From the NCBI GenBank assembly GCA_040377305.1, contig JBEIPA010000030.1, positions 1 through 61,675 of the forward strand: DNA of 61,675 nt. Direction: 5' to 3'. Below are positions 50,090 to 58,457 of this stretch, one piece after another; positions within the stretch are counted from its first letter, which is position 1, and each line of letters opens with the position of its first letter. The stretch is from Flavobacteriales bacterium. GTDB lineage: Bacteria > Bacteroidota > Bacteroidia > Palsa-965. The notes under the pieces are model-generated. The model was not told the DNA's origin. It did no database searches and saw only the letters and a program-made list of their open reading frames with translations. A program made the position numbers and the translations under genes.

Positions 50090-50755
50090 ATGGAAACTAT
50101 ACGTATCGGCATCGTTGATGATCAGAAACTGTTCCGCGAGGGGTTGGCCACGCTCATCTGCAGTGTACCGGAATTTGAACTGGTGATGGAAGCAGAAAAC
50201 GGACTGGACTGTCTCCGTGCTCTTGCCACAACTGACCCGTTGCCCCATGTTATTCTCATGGACATCGAAATGCCGGGCATGGATGGAACCGAACTGAATA
50301 TAAAAATTCACGAAGATTTTCCCGGCATCAATGTACTGGTAGTGTCGGTGCACAACCGCGAAAAGCTGATATCGAAAATGATAAGCGCGGGGGCCAGCGG
50401 ATACCTATCAAAAAATTGCAATAAAGAAGAACTGATTACCGCAATTCATGTTGTACACAAAAATGATTTCTACGTCAACAGCGCACTGCTGAAGTCTATT
50501 CAAGCCGGGTCCACCTCGAGAACCACTTCCGCAACCGGAAATTTCCATGAACCCGACCTTACTGTTCGGGAAAAAGAAATTCTCATCCTGATCTGTAAGG
50601 AATTCAACAATGCCGAAATAGCAGAACGTCTTTTCATTAGTATACGTACCGCGGAAGGTCACCGCAACAATCTCCTCGCCAAAACAGGTTGCCGCAATAC
50701 AGCAGGTCTTGTTCTGTATGCCGTAAAACATGGTTATTACGAGCTGCATTTTTAA
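50090..50755 (+). CDS. NarL/LuxR family response regulator
   Basis: IVDDQ, MDIEMP, LTVREKEIL...SIRTAEGHRNNLLAK. Confidence 0.95.
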   Translation: METIRIGIVDDQKLFREGLATLICSVPEFELVMEAENGLDCLRALATTDPLPHVILMDIEMPGMDGTELNIKIHEDFPGINVLVVSVHNREKLISKMISAGASGYLSKNCNKEELITAIHVVHKNDFYVNSALLKSIQAGSTSRTTSATGNFHEPDLTVREKEILILICKEFNNAEIAERLFISIRTAEGHRNNLLAKTGCRNTAGLVLYAVKHGYYELHF

Positions 50756-50799: not shown

Positions 50800-50838
50800 C
50801 ACGTAGAACTACCTGATTCATAAATCACGTAGTTCTAC
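50800..50838. promoter_or_regulatory. Candidate response-regulator operator upstream of the RiPP precursor
   Basis: CACGTAGAACTAC (50800) and CACGTAGTTCTAC (50826); GTAGAACTAC and GTAGTTCTAC are reverse complements and each is quasi-palindromic. Confidence 0.55.
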
Positions 50839-50957
50839 TCTGTTATACCGTGCCTGTATAAATTTCCTTTGGGTAATCAAAGAAAGAAGCTTCTCATTGA
50901 TAACGGGGGATACCGAAAAGCCGTTTTAACAGAGTAGGTAAAAAAAACAAATCTATC

Positions 50958-51296
50958 ATGGGCTTAAACAAAACAAACGATTGTTGCTGGATTGTACTGG
51001 CAACTACAGGCTGTTCTACAGATGCAACTACTGCAAAATTATCTGCAGATGCAAAAGTGAACGCCGATTGCTGCTGGATTGTTCTTGGAACAACAGGTTG
51101 CAGCACAATTAACGTATCAGCTGCAGATTCGCTTCAGGCGAAAAATGCTGTTCCGGATGATTGTTGCTGGTATGTTGTCGCAACAACAGGATGTTCTGGC
51201 GACACTGTACAGAAGAATCTCGGTGCTGCTAAACCTGTTGCTGATGATTGCTGCTGGTACCTGCTTGCAACTACAGGTTGCACATTCAACCAGTAA
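50958..51296 (+). CDS. Multi-core RiPP (lanthipeptide-type) precursor with four DCCWxxxxTTGC[S/T] repeats
   Basis: Cores at 50979, 51066, 51159 and 51246; codons vary synonymously between repeats; in-frame TAA at 50901 limits N-terminal extension; directly upstream of modification genes. Confidence 0.88.
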   Translation: MGLNKTNDCCWIVLATTGCSTDATTAKLSADAKVNADCCWIVLGTTGCSTINVSAADSLQAKNAVPDDCCWYVVATTGCSGDTVQKNLGAAKPVADDCCWYLLATTGCTFNQ

Positions 51297-51359: not shown

Positions 51360-52472
51360 ATGAATCTATACACCGTTGATACCGCGCACTCACTTCTTCA
51401 GCAACAACAGCTCGTTGACGCTGAAGAAATCCTATTTGGAGATTACGAAGTCACCAGCACCAACCGGAGAAACAGGAACCTACAGGTGACCACACTTCAT
51501 AACGGTAATTTTCTGGTTAAGCAGGTCGCAGATAAAAAAGCAGAGAATGCGAAAACTGTTTGTACGGAAATCGCCCTATACCAGCATGTGAAAGAAAACC
51601 TTCCTCATCTTCACGCGTTGTTTCCTACGGTTCACTACACCAATATCGAAAATATTACTCTGGCGCTTGAATTTTACAAGGAAGCAACTCCGCTCTGGAA
51701 ATATTATAAAGAACGTACCATACATCAACTCCCTCTACGCACCATTAGCGCTGCAGGGAAACTGCTCGGAGAACTGCATCGTGTCTTTGCATACGACGGA
51801 ACCAACCCCGTTCCCTTTCTGACCACCGAGCTTCCGTTTGTGTTTAACCTGCACGAACCACACCCGCGCCTGCTGTCTTATTTACGTTCGGGAGGCTACC
51901 ACTTTATTGAGCAACTGCAGTCCGATGAAGCACTAATACACCTTTGGGATGTTGCGCGTGAAATGTGGCAGATCAATGCGCTCATTCACGGCGATGTAAA
52001 ACTCGACAACGTAATCGTTATTCCACGAGCCGGTGAAGAAGAAGCAACACACCTCAAACTTGTGGATTGGGAAATGGCTCAGTACGGCGACACAGCATGG
52101 GATGTTGCAGGTGCATTGCAGGATTTTATTTTCTGGTGGACCATCATGATGCCGAATGAAGATACCGCCGAAGCCATGATCAAAAAAGCCCCGTTTGGAT
52201 TTCAGGAACTGCAACCGGCGATAACCACTTACTGGCACTCGTACAGTGGCGTATCCGGCTTAAGCGACACGGCAAACGAAGAACTGCTGAGCAAGGCCAT
52301 TTTCTTTTCAGGCTTCAGGTGCATCCAGACTGCGTATGAAATTTCTTCAAAATTCGAACACGTTCCTCCCATCGCACAGGTGCTGTTCAATCTCGGAAAG
52401 AGTATTGTAAAAGATCCCGAAACCGCACGTCACAAACTTTTTGCCTTGTCACCTCAATTGTCAGTCCTATGA
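51360..52472 (+). CDS. APH-family phosphotransferase, LanK-like Ser/Thr kinase
   Basis: NRRNRN, FLVKQ, LIHGDVKLDN (catalytic loop), LVDWEMAQYGDTAWDVAG. Confidence 0.88.
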   Translation: MNLYTVDTAHSLLQQQQLVDAEEILFGDYEVTSTNRRNRNLQVTTLHNGNFLVKQVADKKAENAKTVCTEIALYQHVKENLPHLHALFPTVHYTNIENITLALEFYKEATPLWKYYKERTIHQLPLRTISAAGKLLGELHRVFAYDGTNPVPFLTTELPFVFNLHEPHPRLLSYLRSGGYHFIEQLQSDEALIHLWDVAREMWQINALIHGDVKLDNVIVIPRAGEEEATHLKLVDWEMAQYGDTAWDVAGALQDFIFWWTIMMPNEDTAEAMIKKAPFGFQELQPAITTYWHSYSGVSGLSDTANEELLSKAIFFSGFRCIQTAYEISSKFEHVPPIAQVLFNLGKSIVKDPETARHKLFALSPQLSVL

Positions 52473-53521
52473 TCAACCCTCAACTTCACCACGACATACG
52501 CCGGGTAATTGATGCCATCCGTTTCATTTCAGAAACCAGCTACAGCATCAATGGACTGAAGCGCGATATTGAAACCATCCGGATAAAAGATCCGCTCGGG
52601 AGTCTCAATGGGGCGACAACAGGTGCGGGCAAACTCAAAGAAAAATTCATAGCGGTACTGCTCACCGATATCTACAACAATTTATACACGGCAGATCACA
52701 GCGCGCCTCCAACCCTTGGATCGTACCTGCACAATGAATTTATTACAGAAGTTTCTGAAGGCAATAATGGAACAGGAAGCTGGGAAGAAGGATGGACACT
52801 GATCGGGCCCTCAAAACGCACAGGTAAGCTAATCGTCCGAAAAAATAATATGAAGTTCTGGGTGGAAGAAGAAAGAGTACGCGCTGAGAATTCAACAGGC
52901 GCAGAAACTACATATAGTGTGAAAGTGGAAAAAGAAACACGCTTCCTGAATTCGCACTTTTATTACGCATATGGTGACACCCATAAGACGGAAGTTACCG
53001 GTTACGCGGATCGCCCCTTGCGTTTTTACTGGAATCTCACACCACAGGGAGCTATTAACTATATCGCTTCCCTGACGAGAGAACTGAACAAACGAAAAAT
53101 TGCATTCAGAACAAAAATACTTTCCAGTCCCGCCGACTATTCGAGAACCGATTCCGGTGTACTCTATATTGATTCTTCCCAACTGGAGAGCGTGCTTCCG
53201 GCGATTGAAGCAGTATACGCCGATCTCCGGCCATTACTGAAATCATCTGTACCATTGTTTGTAAAACAGGTTTACCCTGGTGTGGGTTTTGCGGAAGATC
53301 CACGAAACGGTATGAGTTTCGGAATCAGCAGATCCTCTCTTATCGGCAATACGTTGTTCAGTTGCTTTGAGAAACAAATCACCGATCCTCAAATGATAGA
53401 AGGTGAAATGGTCTGCTCATTTATACAGGCAGGAATTTCAACATCGCACCCATATGCACAGGTGACAAAAATAAATGAGTACGAATCTATACTTCAAAAA
53501 CTGAACCCGTCATGGAACTAA
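52469..53521 (+). CDS. HopA1-domain protein, LanY-like phospho-Ser/Thr lyase
   Basis: N.G.G.WEEGW, RFYWNL, YSRTDSGVLY, PLFVK...GVGFAEDP...SFGISR; overlaps both neighbours. Confidence 0.82.
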   Translation: MINPQLHHDIRRVIDAIRFISETSYSINGLKRDIETIRIKDPLGSLNGATTGAGKLKEKFIAVLLTDIYNNLYTADHSAPPTLGSYLHNEFITEVSEGNNGTGSWEEGWTLIGPSKRTGKLIVRKNNMKFWVEEERVRAENSTGAETTYSVKVEKETRFLNSHFYYAYGDTHKTEVTGYADRPLRFYWNLTPQGAINYIASLTRELNKRKIAFRTKILSSPADYSRTDSGVLYIDSSQLESVLPAIEAVYADLRPLLKSSVPLFVKQVYPGVGFAEDPRNGMSFGISRSSLIGNTLFSCFEKQITDPQMIEGEMVCSFIQAGISTSHPYAQVTKINEYESILQKLNPSWN

Positions 53522-54816
53522 CGCAAACGATTTCAACCGTTGCAACCGATCTTTTTCTGGATGCCTCCATCCGCATAGGAGATGATCTTATAAAGACAGC
53601 GCACTGGGATAAAACAAGAACATATTGTAACTGGTTAGGGAGAAGAGATATCCTCGATCCGGAAATTGCACCTTACTCCGAAAGAACATCTGCAATGAGT
53701 CCTGAATTCTACAGCGGTTCTTCCGGCATTTCGTTTTTTCTCATGGAATTATACGGCGTTACGCTGAACCCTGCATACAGGAAAACTGCGCTTGCCGCCT
53801 GGTTGCGCTCAGTGGAATATTTACGTCGCAATGATTTTCCGGCTTCACCCATTTCCTTTTACGCAGGAGATCTTGGCCTGCTTTATATTGCACACCGGTT
53901 TACCGAAATTGACCCTTCACTTGCTGAACGGATGCAGGACGACATGGCTTACCTACTGAAGAAAACAGTATGCGGTCTTTCAGTAAACCATTCACTCGAC
54001 GTAATCGGTGGTAATGCAGGTGCAATTGCTCCTTTGTTCCGTCTTGCCGAAAAACACGGCTTGCGTGAGTGCGCACAAACTGCAATCGACTGCGCCGACG
54101 AAATCGTTAATCTAGCCGAATGGAAAGATGATATATGCTTCTGGGCTTCACCGAAAATTCACGGTGTTGAATTGGACAAGCCTCCACTCACCGGGTATTC
54201 CCACGGCTGTTCGGGAATTGCCAACGGATTGCTGGAAGCTTTTAAAGCAACCGGTGATGAGCGTTACCTCCACCATGCGCGCGGCGCATTTGCATTTGAA
54301 CATGCATTGTTTAACGATGATGAAAATAACTGGATCGACACACGCTACCCGCATGTGAAACGAAACGGTAAAATCACCGGCACATTCCGCTCTGCTTGGT
54401 GTCATGGTGCTCCGGGAAATGCGCTGGCACACATGAATGCCGCCACCATTGATGATGCACGGAAAGAATTTCACCTCGACATGGCAAAGCGTGCCATCAG
54501 CACCACACAAAAACAATTGATGGAGAAAATGGAGTATCCGGAAAAAGACGCCACACTTTGTCATGGAGTTCTGGGACTTTCCGATATTCTCTTCACCTGC
54601 GGAAACTACATGAATGATTCCGAAAGCCGCGAAATGGCAATTTTCATTTCTGAAAAATACCTGCGCCTGTTTCCTGTTGTGCGGAATATGCCGTCAGGAA
54701 TTGTCGCGGGTGGATTCAGTCCTTCATTACTCACAGGTTCTGCAGGAATCGGATTGCACTACCTGAGACTCGCATCGGAAAATCCGATACCATCTGTGCT
54801 GATGATTACGAAGTGA
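53512..54816 (+). CDS. lanC: Stand-alone LanC-like lanthionine cyclase
   Basis: Seven GxxG loops; GYSHG, AWCHG and LCHG match the NisC catalytic His and Zn ligands. Confidence 0.9.
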   Translation: MELTQTISTVATDLFLDASIRIGDDLIKTAHWDKTRTYCNWLGRRDILDPEIAPYSERTSAMSPEFYSGSSGISFFLMELYGVTLNPAYRKTALAAWLRSVEYLRRNDFPASPISFYAGDLGLLYIAHRFTEIDPSLAERMQDDMAYLLKKTVCGLSVNHSLDVIGGNAGAIAPLFRLAEKHGLRECAQTAIDCADEIVNLAEWKDDICFWASPKIHGVELDKPPLTGYSHGCSGIANGLLEAFKATGDERYLHHARGAFAFEHALFNDDENNWIDTRYPHVKRNGKITGTFRSAWCHGAPGNALAHMNAATIDDARKEFHLDMAKRAISTTQKQLMEKMEYPEKDATLCHGVLGLSDILFTCGNYMNDSESREMAIFISEKYLRLFPVVRNMPSGIVAGGFSPSLLTGSAGIGLHYLRLASENPIPSVLMITK

Positions 54817-55037: not shown

Positions 55038-58000
55038 TTACATTTTTACAACACGATGCATGCCTGTATTTCCATTCGCAGTAATGCAGATGAAATAAAC
55101 ACCAACCGGCTCGTTCGTCAGATCAAGCGTAATGGTTTGTACCTGTTGTTTTTTTTCGCTTTGGATCAATTTTCCGTCAACGGAATAAATTTCAACGATC
55201 ACATCACTGTTTAATTCAGCAGTTGTGGTGATGTTGATTGCGCCGTTTGTTGGATTCGGGAACAGGTTCCACGATGTTGCAGTAGCTGCCTCAAAGCCCA
55301 TGCAGCCATCTACAAGGATGCTGTCGGTTGTGCTTCCGGTGCATCCGTTTATATCCGTGAATGTGTAAGTGATGTAATGCAGCCCTGTTCCGGCAGCAAA
55401 CGGATCGAATGTATTTCCGGAAACCGCAGTACCGCTGAAGGTTCCGCCCGATGGTGGTTCTCCGGAAAGATTAATTAATCCCGGGAAATCTCCGCACACA
55501 GTATCTATTGGCAATGCAAGTGTAACTGTTGGTGCGCCCGGATCATTGACAGAAGCGGTTGCGGTAGCTGTACATCCGTTTGCATCGGTAACGGTAACGC
55601 TGTAAGAGCCTGCACCAATTGCAGTGAGATCTTCGGTTACATCGCTGTTGCTCCAGAGGAATGAATAAACCATTGTTCCTCCTGTTACATCAATATCAAT
55701 AGATCCGTCTGTTCCGCTGCAGGTTGTCGGATTCACTGCATTGATGACTGAAGCAGACAGAACAGCTGGTTCGGCAACAGTAATTAACGTTGTGCTCGTA
55801 CAACCGTTAACATCCGTCACCGTGTAGGAATACGTTCCGGCAATTTCTGTAAATGTTCCTTCGCCGGTGTATGGTGCGGTTCCGCCAGCGCCCGTTACGG
55901 TTACTGTTGCTGCTCCACCGTTGCAAAGAATCGCTGTTGCGGATGAAGCCGCTGTAAGTGCTGTTGGTTCTGTAATGGTGATTGTCGTTGTGCTCGTACA
56001 ACCGTTAACATCCGTCACCGTGTAGGAATACGTTCCGGCAATTTCTGTAAATGTTCCTTCGCCGGTGTATGGTGCGGTTCCGCCAGCGCCCGTTACGGTT
56101 ACTGTTGCAGTTCCACCGTTGCAAAGAATCGCTGTTGACGATGAAGCAGACGTGAGCGCTGTTGGTTCTGTAACCGTGATCGACGTTGTGCTCGTGCAAC
56201 CGTTTGCGTCCGTAACAGGATATGAATAGTTCCCTGCGGTTACTGTAAATGTTCCCGCGCCTGAGTAAGGTGAAGTTCCTCCGGAGCCAGTCACCATCAC
56301 TGTTGCAGTTCCACCGTTACAAAGAATCGCTGTTGACGATGATGCAGATGTAAGCACTGTTGGTTCTGTTACGGTGATTGACGTTGTGGTTGTACAACCG
56401 TTCGCATCTGTCACAGGATATGAATAGTTACCTGCAGTTACTGTAAATGTTCCCGCGCCTGAGTAAGGTGAAGTGCCTCCGGAACCAGTCACCGTCACTG
56501 TTGCAGTTCCACCGTTGCAGGTAATGGACGTTGCCGAAGAAGATGAAGTCAGCACCGGCGGTTGTGTAATAGTAGCTGAAGCGGTGGTGGTACAGCCATT
56601 CACATCAGCGATGGTTACACTGTACGTTCCCGGTGCAAGGCCATTGATATCTTCGGTGGTTGCGCTGTTTGACCAGCTATAACTGTAACCGCCGGCACCA
56701 CCCGACATGGTCATGTTGATGGCTCCGTTCGAATTACCATTGCAGGAAACATTCGTAGCTGTAATGGCCGCGTAAAGAGGTGCAGGTGGCATGACCATTA
56801 CATTAGCCGTTGCAGAACATCCGGCCACGTCAGTTACTGTATAAGTGTACGCACCCATGCAGACTCCAGTGGCAATTTGCGTGATCATGCCATTGCTCCA
56901 TTGATAAGTATACGGACCGCTCCCACCGGAAACGACCGCAGTGAGTTGTCCGTCACACATCCCGTCGCAGGAGATAGGGAAACCATTGTAGTTGGAGGTA
57001 ATTGTTGCTGATGCGGTTAATGGTGCGGGTTGTGTTATGGTAAATGACCGGGAAGAAACACATCCGTTCGCGTCAGTCACGGTGCAATAATAGGTACCGG
57101 GTCCGATTGGTGTTGAAGTAGCTCCGTTACCGCCTGAAGGTGACCAGGAATAGGTGTAAGGTGCAGTTCCTCCTGTTGGAGTCATGGTCGCAGTGGTGGT
57201 TCCGCCGGTGCAAGGAAATGGGGCAACTGTTACGGAAGAAGAGAGTGTTGACGCATAGCTTACGGAGAACTGGGAACTGGAAGCGGTACACCCATTTGCA
57301 TCGGTAACTGTAACCGCATACGTGCCGGGATAAAGACCACTGATATCTTCGGTGGTATAACCGAATGACCAATCGTACGAGAACGGTCCGGTACCTCCTG
57401 TTACGGTAAGATTAATTGCTCCATCATTTGAGCTGCTGCAGGAAATGTGCGTAACGACAGCGGAAAATGAAATGGGTGCAGGCTGCGTAATGGTAACTGT
57501 TGCAACCGATGAAGCACATCCGTTGGAGACGGTGCAAGAGTATGTTCCTGCAGCAAGTCCTGTTGCAGTGGCACTACTTCCGCCTATTGGTGCCCAGCTA
57601 TACGTGAATGGACCAACACCGGTTGCTGTAACTGTTGCAGAACCATTGTTGCCTCCGTTGCACGAAATATGCGTAGTTGCAGAAATGCTGGTGGGGATCG
57701 CAGGTGTTGCCGATGATCCGGAAGTGACTCCGCCTGGAGCAAGCCAGTTGGAGTAGGTTCCGTTGAGCGCAAAGTTCTGAAGCGTACCGTTGCGGTTATT
57801 TCCACTTGCATCGGTAAGTGTGGTGATTCCCGCGTTGTTTGCTGCGGCAACGCCTTGATTGAAATGATAATCGGCTACAAGTCCATTGGAGAATGCAGGG
57901 GCTTCTCCCGTCATGCAACTGGTGATCTCCGATATGCAGAGCGCGCGGTTCCATATGCGCACCTCATCAATGCTTCCCAGGAAATGTTCTGGCCATGCTG

Positions 58001-58457
58001 CATCGGAGTGTCCGCCGATAGTGAACGGAAGTCCGGTGGAGCTGGTTTGCATTCCAAGTGCAACCGTTCCCACGTTCATACCGTTGAGATAAAAGACAGC
58101 ATTCGTTGAGCTCATCACGACAGCGAGGTGATACCATGTATTCGGGTTGATGTTCACAGGTAAAGCACTAAATGAAGCGCCGTTATAAAATCCGAGTTCG
58201 TTGTTATATTCATTCGTGTGAATGCTCCAGCGGGCGCCTGATGTATTGGTGCGCATAGCCAGCACGCAGGTATTCCCGAATGAAACATCGGAATTGAACC
58301 AACACTCCGCAGTGCCGGTTGTGAAATCAAATGCAGGATCTACGGGAATGCTCACGATATCATCGATGCCGTCGAAGTGGAGCGCAGCACCTGATTGTGC
58401 AACGCCCGGCAAACAAAGAGTTAGGGGCAGAAATAGTGTGATCAGTTTTTTTATCAT
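55038..58457 (-). CDS. T9SS-secreted adhesin-like protein: LamG domain plus SprB-like repeats
   Basis: ALHFDGIDD...WYHLAVV...GSIDEVRIWNRAL; many GGT.PY.Y.W...GTY..TVTDANGC repeats; LFPNPT...HRVVKM. Confidence 0.9.
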   Translation of the reverse strand: MIKKLITLFLPLTLCLPGVAQSGAALHFDGIDDIVSIPVDPAFDFTTGTAECWFNSDVSFGNTCVLAMRTNTSGARWSIHTNEYNNELGFYNGASFSALPVNINPNTWYHLAVVMSSTNAVFYLNGMNVGTVALGMQTSSTGLPFTIGGHSDAAWPEHFLGSIDEVRIWNRALCISEITSCMTGEAPAFSNGLVADYHFNQGVAAANNAGITTLTDASGNNRNGTLQNFALNGTYSNWLAPGGVTSGSSATPAIPTSISATTHISCNGGNNGSATVTATGVGPFTYSWAPIGGSSATATGLAAGTYSCTVSNGCASSVATVTITQPAPISFSAVVTHISCSSSNDGAINLTVTGGTGPFSYDWSFGYTTEDISGLYPGTYAVTVTDANGCTASSSQFSVSYASTLSSSVTVAPFPCTGGTTTATMTPTGGTAPYTYSWSPSGGNGATSTPIGPGTYYCTVTDANGCVSSRSFTITQPAPLTASATITSNYNGFPISCDGMCDGQLTAVVSGGSGPYTYQWSNGMITQIATGVCMGAYTYTVTDVAGCSATANVMVMPPAPLYAAITATNVSCNGNSNGAINMTMSGGAGGYSYSWSNSATTEDINGLAPGTYSVTIADVNGCTTTASATITQPPVLTSSSSATSITCNGGTATVTVTGSGGTSPYSGAGTFTVTAGNYSYPVTDANGCTTTTSITVTEPTVLTSASSSTAILCNGGTATVMVTGSGGTSPYSGAGTFTVTAGNYSYPVTDANGCTSTTSITVTEPTALTSASSSTAILCNGGTATVTVTGAGGTAPYTGEGTFTEIAGTYSYTVTDVNGCTSTTTITITEPTALTAASSATAILCNGGAATVTVTGAGGTAPYTGEGTFTEIAGTYSYTVTDVNGCTSTTLITVAEPAVLSASVINAVNPTTCSGTDGSIDIDVTGGTMVYSFLWSNSDVTEDLTAIGAGSYSVTVTDANGCTATATASVNDPGAPTVTLALPIDTVCGDFPGLINLSGEPPSGGTFSGTAVSGNTFDPFAAGTGLHYITYTFTDINGCTGSTTDSILVDGCMGFEAATATSWNLFPNPTNGAINITTTAELNSDVIVEIYSVDGKLIQSEKKQQVQTITLDLTNEPVGVYFICITANGNTGMHRVVKM
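55770..56560 (-). repeat. Four 198-bp intragenic tandem units in an A-A'-B-B' pattern (boundaries approximate)
   Basis: Near-identical blocks at 55791/55989 and 56221/56419, 198-bp period. Confidence 0.85.

Follow-up and report, generated by a model that had tools for sequence, protein, structure and literature searches.

By the textbook rule, lanthipeptide synthetases depend on a leader in their substrate, and the locus described here raises the question of how such enzymes may act on a precursor in which almost nothing stands ahead of the first core. The window, i.e., the whole stretch of 61,675 nucleotides that was analysed (contig JBEIPA010000030.1, from a Flavobacteriales bacterium), carries a four-gene cassette in the order precursor-LanK-LanY-LanC, in which the active-site motifs are intact.

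The enzymes of the cassette and their class

The kinase, LanK, is an APH-type Ser/Thr kinase of 370 aa (51360-52472, +; Pfam APH E 3.9e-14; NCBIfam LxmK E 3.2e-22, an equivalog match scoring 79 and so below the cut-off of 315), and its model (pLDDT 93.9) has LxmK (9DK3) as its top fold match, with Z 31.6 and rmsd 3.5 over 335. It is followed by LanY, a HopA1-family phospho-Ser/Thr lyase of 350 aa (52469-53521, +; PF17914 E 4.1e-34; LxmY 9DK1_B E 5.9e-11), and by a stand-alone LanC cyclase of 434 aa (53512-54816, +; PF05147 E 4.4e-48). The catalytic residues of LanK are kept (Lys54, His210-Asp212-Lys214-Asn217, Asp236-Trp-Glu), Arg185 and Lys216 of LanY are invariant and likely correspond to Arg187 and Lys219 of CaoY, and the zinc-ligand motifs of LanC (His231, Cys297, Cys350-His351) can be aligned with those of LicM2 and are conserved in the homologues.

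With its stand-alone LanK (PF01636), LanY (PF17914) and zinc LanC, its core of Cys and Ser/Thr residues and neither LanD nor LanX, the cassette has the elements by which the class Vb layout (LanK, LanY and LanC without LanD/LanX) is defined in the available parts of PMC12291118 and PMC11186320, and it resembles the SmoK/SmoY/SmoC system of mSmoA, with its Cys- and Thr/Ser-rich core, as far as the accessible text of these sources and of PMC12328550 describes it. We consider it likely, from gene content, that the precursor is that of a class Vb lanthipeptide, ring formation being predicted. SmoA, the sole characterised class Vb member as of 2024 according to the accessible portion of PMC11186320, is described in the available excerpts with a leader, whereas the window precursor has none, carries four near-identical CCW-x4-TTGC cores and belongs to a non-actinobacterial host range. 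The enzymes also resemble those of class Va, CaoK/CaoY (cacaoidin) and LxmK/LxmY (lexapeptide, PDB 9DK1-3), the kinase in its LxmK fold and the lyase in its LxmY profile; class Va clusters, however, contain LanD/LanX and no LanC, whereas the window cassette contains LanC without LanD or LanX, and its precursor lacks the C-terminal Cys for AviCys that would point to class Va or the thioamitides.

The cassette is rare, with a lyase match in 2/35 genomes of the order (the host and one distant homologue) and in only 1 of 401 genomes sampled across the phylum (the host). The 10 related cassettes sit among differing neighbours, and no recurring dedicated protease or transporter was found beside them, as judged from ORF starts and from Pfam scans of three neighbours. 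In the window the next gene after LanC, on the opposite strand and convergent with the cassette, encodes a probably unrelated protein of 1139 aa, which has LamG/SprB repeats and a T9SS sorting domain (55038-58457, -). In two loci the lyase and LanC are apparently fused in a single ORF (L095:3483-5858, L096:7992-10340).

A precursor with a seven-residue start

The precursor gene (50958-51296, +), recognised from the ORF list and from its homologues, runs from ATG 50958 to TAA 51294-51296 and encodes a 112-aa LanA peptide with four D-CCW-x4-TTGC cores in one chain. Only the stub MGLNKTN (50958-50978, +) had been seen ahead of core 1 in an earlier note on this DNA, and this is borne out, since core 1 starts at Asp8; the stub resembles the end of a spacer, and its final KTND, taken with that Asp, recurs at the end of one spacer of locus L055. 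Core 1 (Asp8-Thr21, D-C-C-W-I-V-L-A-T-T-G-C-S-T; 50979-51020, +), core 2 (Asp37-Thr50; 51066-51107, +) and core 3 (Asp68-Gly81; 51159-51200, +) have putative boundaries, and core 4 (Asp97-Gln112; 51246-51293, +) reaches up to the stop codon without a follower, the C-terminus being TFNQ. Each core holds 3 Cys and 3-4 Ser/Thr. Identity among the four cores is 82/87/55% by codon position 1/2/3 and no DNA tandem repeat was found in the gene (TRF); core conservation therefore lies at the protein level. For the precursor, no family was obtained from Pfam above cut-off or from NCBIfam, and the ESM Atlas had no usable match; a sigma-70 promoter/terminator scan found nothing.

Upstream, the reading frame is closed by TGA 50898 and TAA 50901. 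The latter, together with the lack of an intervening ATG, had already been taken to exclude a long leader, and the exclusion can be extended, since the 18 codons between these stops and the start contain no GTG or TTG either, the only near-starts being ATA 50910 and ATC 50955. Compared with 1,305 long-ORF starts of the host genome, the context of the ATG is at the 98th percentile and that of ATA 50910 at the 14th; ATC 50955, one codon before the ATG, has a context score similar to it and would add one residue only. A frameshift in the A-run at 50940-50947, left open by the earlier note as a way of restoring a leader, can be rejected: the two remaining frames end in TAG 50935 and TAA 50939, abutting the run of eight A, so that all three frames are closed just upstream, and simulated slips of -2, -1, +1 and +2 add at most 7 codons and no Met. 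With 8 residues ahead of its first Cys and no copy of the leader motif of its family, the precursor does not have the N-terminal, synthetase-bound leader of a canonical leader-dependent lanthipeptide precursor, and we regard the leader as almost certainly absent.

The short start is shared by relatives, which were collected from homologue searches, a scan of metagenomes with the core pattern and a GTDB lyase scan (39 loci). The metagenome pattern gave 86 matches, from which 10 multi-core loci were kept, single pattern matches in the output being out-of-context frames that were treated as chance; two Aeromonas records from a tblastn search of plasmids were likewise set aside, the one inspected being antisense to an unrelated gene. 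In all 12 complete precursors with DNA context from the same kinase clade (the window's and 11 relatives), 5-8 residues stand ahead of the first Cys; the short start is inherited. These precursors come from Bacteroidota, from a single genome of the Burkholderiaceae and from metagenome contigs without assignment. An in-frame stop lies at most 8 codons upstream of the ATG in 7/11 relatives, and the other four have 39-53 open codons upstream, with possible alternative starts. One relative (Lacinutrix jangbogonensis, L089:6558-6847) has a second precursor copy with a 25-residue N-terminus and a frameshift past the first core.

A structured RNA in place of leader-coding DNA

The stretch that would have to encode a leader is taken up by a DUF805b-like structured RNA in the 5' untranslated region (50903-50940, +), which matches Rfam RF02914 with 32.1 bits (E 7.4e-08), 3.5 bits under the gathering score of 35.6, and which consists of a short stem plus a likely CC/GG pseudoknot. 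It is like the Rfam families DUF805b and DUF805 (RF02914, RF03081, clan CL00115) in consensus, stem and site upstream of a start codon. Alignment of 5' regions gives a common GG..CCGAAAA.CC..GAGTAGG element, assigned to DUF805b by Rfam, and in Rfam scans of the DNA upstream of 10 related leaderless loci the DUF805b/DUF805 gathering score was reached in 7, with two below it and none in L055. Among all loci collected, a relaxed pattern of the RNA occurs before 11/12 clade precursors and three unrelated genes of L090 and is absent elsewhere, including before every leader-bearing precursor.

In a covariation test on 11 related sequences and 6 pairs only, one of which is non-standard in the window, 96.9% of the cells of the stem were paired and covariation was 0.264, a value as high being reached by 1/500 shuffles and slid controls remaining at or below 0.076; MFE folding of the 5' region was not significant (z -1.09), as is expected for a small pseudoknot. 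To judge from these alignments, the DNA ahead of the precursor is conserved as RNA and not as protein. The distance from the RNA to the short-start ATG is 19-31 nt in 11/12 precursors, the spacings are not frame-keeping, and the first ATG downstream of the RNA is the short start in every case, which also decides the matter for the four relatives whose frames are open upstream.

Further DUF805/DUF805b RNAs lie before unrelated, mostly small genes (G000 C6:63300-63334, -, and C49:166035-166067, +; L090 13591, 13931 and 16684), with the ATG about 15-22 nt past the end of the Rfam match. Their occurrence suggests that this RNA is a general 5' element related to translation or stability; as a side result, the orphan DUF805/DUF805b RNA is now linked to the precursor genes described here.

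The leader motif of relatives and its likely loss

In relatives the leader contains the motif [FYL]-L-x-G-x-[IVL], or in a looser form [FYL]-[LIFV]-x-G-x-[IVL]. It is present in 10/10 CCW-type proteins checked, which have long N-termini (24-160 residues before the first core), and in 24 of 27 more distant precursor candidates from kinase/lyase/LanC loci, these being chosen by a heuristic and by eye, with truncated or precursor-less loci excluded. When a profile of the motif was evaluated by leave-one-out, 25/26 true motifs scored at least 4.5 and 17/17 motif-less CCW sequences, spacers included, fell below 0.

Eight of the distant candidates and P0036 have in addition a domain of about 90 aa N-terminal to the leader motif; its pattern, LxGYLG..RLYLD..Y.EIP..DILH, is found at the start of precursors in L095-L098, L111, L118, L123, L124 and P0036. 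The domain has no Pfam match, and its model is a small beta-rich fold with weak matches to Sm/SH3-like small beta-barrels (best Z 3.7). The leaderless kinases form one clade in a quick tree, drawn with a midpoint root (SH-aLRT 99), and again in a set of 142 kinases, of which it takes in 48 (FastTree 0.996). In the quick tree the sister group of this clade carries both the domain and the leader motif, which makes loss of the leader the likely direction.

The earlier note named repeat precursors as typical of cyanobactins, graspetides and dikaritins, in contrast to lanthipeptides, and this has to be corrected: multi-core precursors are common throughout the kinase/lyase/LanC family, and the oddity is the lost leader. 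Sphingomonas, Acidobacteriota, Gammaproteobacteria, Bacteroidia and further groups have very long repeat precursors ahead of their kinase/lyase/LanC genes; those of L097-L099, L101, L104, L106, L107, L109-L113 and L115-L118 are 300-676 aa as called, with many Cys/Thr cores. Precursors from Bryobacterales (L100, L102, L103, L105, L120-L122) have, besides the leader motif, linkers rich in Lys and, at the C-terminus, a conserved G-W-..-P-P tail, which could be a follower. In a second lineage without the motif, LanC is immediately followed by an S8/S53-type peptidase (L101:4939-6952, Pfam-checked; L107:10420-12478; L114:3623-5275), and in L101 and L107 the N-terminal domain of the precursor is encoded as a stand-alone gene.

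Kinase changes at the inferred leader pocket

Among 74 columns that are hydrophobic in the motif-bearing clades, only 185 and 340 are polar in the leaderless clade, which has also lost Gln344 and Asn348 and has a bulky residue in place of Ala319. In a set of 142 kinases, some of them redundant, a hydrophobic residue at 185 is found in 5/48 inside the clade versus 85/94 outside; the corresponding figures are 4/48 and 86/94 for Gln344, 7/48 and 80/94 for Asn348, and 0/48 and 82/94 for Ala319. Outside the clade, kinases of as little as about 26% identity still have the signature I185-A319-V340-Q344-N348; in the 48 clade members it is scrambled.

We infer that positions 185, 340 and 344 of LanK correspond to Leu197, Arg354 and Gly358 of CaoK, a mapping that was drawn by eye from the alignment with LxmK and from matching residue spacing, without the CaoK sequence itself. 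According to the accessible parts of PMC9486802, these three residues are modelled as contacts of Tyr-17 and Glu-12 of the leader, in a pocket that likewise comes from modelling, with substrate mutants in its support, and CaoK/CaoY are leader-dependent to the point that a single leader mutation, at Tyr-17, abolishes dehydration of CaoA.

Other mapped positions of the groove (Leu345, Ile349, Leu360) are still hydrophobic in the leaderless clade, and the groove may therefore still bind something. Clade-specific loss of conserved columns is similar overall across the three enzymes (13/71, 13/68 and 20/108), and the second motif-less lineage (L101, L107, L117) has changed likewise at 340 and 348 but for the most part not at 185 or 344; with one evolutionary event and this partial echo, the change in the kinase is to be read as a correlation. 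None of the leader-bearing CCW precursors had enzyme genes in the fetched DNA. In two predictions of a complex between LanK and the precursor, ipSAE was 0.00 (controls not folded), which gives no evidence either way.

Spacers and cores

The spacers of the window measure 18/20/18 aa from Cys to Cys, or 16/18/16 if the core is taken as D..CS, in agreement with the lengths of 16-18 aa, and with the shared endings before each core, that had been noted earlier. Across the clade their length is 14-22 aa. In a set of 31 spacers from 11 precursors (L059 was left out as a near-copy of L030) they are Ala/Ser/Thr-rich, hold no Cys and contain 4 aromatics in 510 residues. After correction, only Asp-2 (20/31, p <0.0005), Val-4 (17/31, p 0.002) and Asp+3 clearly beat within-spacer shuffles, +4 and +6 being marginal, and no conservation survives at positions -5 to -11; Ser/Thr+1, Thr+2 and Asp-1 act as part of the core. 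Asp+3 is found in 20/31 spacers, at the point that matches the stop codon of the last core (mostly a 2-residue tail), and in the window after 2/3 inner cores only. Several spacers end in a loose L-x-A-K-x-x-V-x-D-D pattern.

Val-4 is absent from 11/11 first-core stubs, and last cores have only 2-4 trailing residues; the consensus match of first, middle and last cores is nevertheless about equal (0.92/0.91/0.87), and the lack of a spacer on one side makes little difference to how well a core is conserved. For this reason, any flanking element that is required at every core can span no more than about three residues. Invariant in the cores are the Thr-Thr pair and a hydrophobic W-[IVY]-[IVL]-[LV]-A stretch.

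On this pattern the spacers look more like processing boundaries than like leaders. The suggestion that they act as recognition or cleavage elements stands, weakly, for cleavage, as Val-4, Asp-2 and Asp+3 beat the shuffles, and finds no support for leader-like recognition, given scores below zero on the leader profile, few aromatics and variable length. In the comparison of homologues that had been proposed in the same context, three or four cores are kept, and the spacers vary in length, with a clear signal at those three positions only. In a cyanobactin-type cassette precursor, conserved recognition sequences flank every core and dedicated proteases are present; here the first core has no Val-4, the last has no follower, and no protease recurs.

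Proposed mechanism and its alternatives

Leader-independent or core-directed recognition, one of the readings offered in the earlier note, now appears to be the best reading of the sequences, the leader motif being present in relatives and lost here, together with kinase changes at the inferred pocket. We lean slightly towards loss of the leader with core-directed recognition, after which short cores would be released by unlinked proteases. A fuller scenario, for and against which we hold the balance to be even, is that a synthetase lineage turned leader-independent by losing motif and N-terminal domain and remodelling the leader pocket of the kinase, that the 13-residue core is read directly or one repeat serves as the leader of the next, and that several tricyclic peptides arise per chain. 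In each core, by analogy with class V chemistry, LanK would phosphorylate the invariant Thr-Thr and the Ser/Thr behind it, LanY would carry out elimination there, and LanC would close up to three thioether rings, one of them likely a Thr-x-x-Cys ring. The binding surface would be the hydrophobic W-[IVY]-[IVL]-[LV]-A stretch, either of the core under modification or of a neighbouring repeat. The spacers, on a weaker footing, would be flexible linkers, cut near the flanking Asp by proteases encoded elsewhere; release would yield about four 13-15-mers per chain, and the repeats would raise the dose of product if cores are released. A cut at Asp+3 would give every product the same C-S-T end, which fits the coincidence of Asp+3 with the stop-codon position of the last core.

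That the spacers are instead internal recognition sequences, one bound spacer directing modification of the cores on either side, is in our view unlikely. Conservation of Val-4 and Asp-2 beyond shuffles, the loose ending of several spacers and the fact that no complete leaderless precursor with fewer than two cores, hence with no spacer, was found are in its favour; yet positions -5 to -11 fail correction, spacers of 14-22 aa with nearly no aromatics do not match the family leader profile, the first-core stubs (11/11) do without Val-4 while their cores are equally conserved, and some positional similarity is to be expected anyway of spacers that arose from duplications. We hold it similarly improbable that cores are recognised directly and the poly-cyclised chain, about 110 aa long, stays uncut as the product, in the manner of a beaded mini-protein. 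The lack of a recurring dedicated protease or exporter beside the cassette would suit such a product, as would three or four cores with spacers of 14-22 aa maintained across the clade and the repeat precursors of 300-670 aa in distant relatives. Against it, the spacers are of low complexity and variable length, near-identical cores are what dose amplification would lead one to expect, Asp+3 coincides with the stop-codon boundary, and in a related lineage an S8/S53-type peptidase comes next to LanC on its downstream side (L101, with similar ORFs in L107 and L114); moreover, lanthipeptide clusters relying on unlinked proteases encoded in the genome are known, according to the accessible text of PMC10604976.

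A leader or adaptor supplied in trans by a separate gene seems very improbable. The family is capable of such a split, as the stand-alone gene in L101 and L107 for a domain that other precursors carry in cis demonstrates, but the domain has no match in the host genome (99.99%-complete; it was detected in the genome of L101 as positive control) or in 5/5 clade genomes, no leader-motif match of at least 10 occurs in the window between 46000 and 59000, and the changes in the kinase pocket argue against a retained leader site. Hardly credible at all is that the short N-terminus is an artefact of assembly or start calling, or the gene a decayed remnant: the four relatives with 39-53 open upstream codons and alternative starts and the frameshifted second copy in L089 could be read in this way, but all three frames are closed upstream at the window, the short start is common to eleven independent assemblies, the upstream DNA is a conserved structured RNA, and decay is at odds with third-position divergence among the cores and with enzyme motifs that are all intact.

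Leader-independent recognition of the core, if true, would provide a system for leader-free cyclisation that is ready to use, as well as a natural experiment on the purpose of leaders, and enzymes that recognise cores would be unusual and useful for peptide engineering. The same core exists in leader-bearing and leaderless precursors, and the loss goes along with a switch at a few positions of the kinase, which makes the role of the leader, in recognition or in activation, directly testable in a four-gene cassette. Mining rules that assume a leader and a single C-terminal core miss such precursors.

Comparison with other peptides

Cyanobactins and dikaritins have multi-core precursors, several cores being joined by short linkers, and their precursors, like that of the microviridin AMdnA, keep an N-terminal leader or recognition sequences for each core. 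The window precursor differs from these multi-core peptides in that its first core has no upstream element and its last no downstream one. A 2022 JACS survey by Pei et al. reportedly covers more than 240 class V clusters with LanC and may already include these precursors; in the literature searched, to which neither that primary class Vb study nor a multicore review belonged, no description of a leaderless or multi-core class V precursor was found.

AMdnA is, according to the accessible part of PMC5934393, similar to the window precursor in having several cores per chain with short linkers, and unlike it in its chemistry, ATP-grasp macrolactonisation as against LanK/LanY/LanC. Naturally leaderless lasso peptides, as described in the available text of PMC13003496, are likewise leaderless members of a class that normally needs a leader, but their chemistry is different and they are not repeat-core lanthipeptides. 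Leader-free lanthipeptide synthetases have been engineered by fusing leader and enzyme, as reported in the accessible sections of PMC10604976 and PMC13003496.

A minor observation concerns the DNA further upstream, where a LuxR-type response regulator gene lies at 50090-50755. Between it and the precursor, at 50800-50840, two near-palindromes, CGTAGAACTAC and CGTAGTTCTAC, lie 26 nt apart; by their resemblance to such sites they may be binding sites of the adjacent regulator. The pattern CGTAG..CTAC has 14 matches over the two strands of the host genome; none was seen in the upstream DNA of the 10 related precursors that were checked. A kinase/regulator pair is also present upstream of the cassette in L088 and L091.
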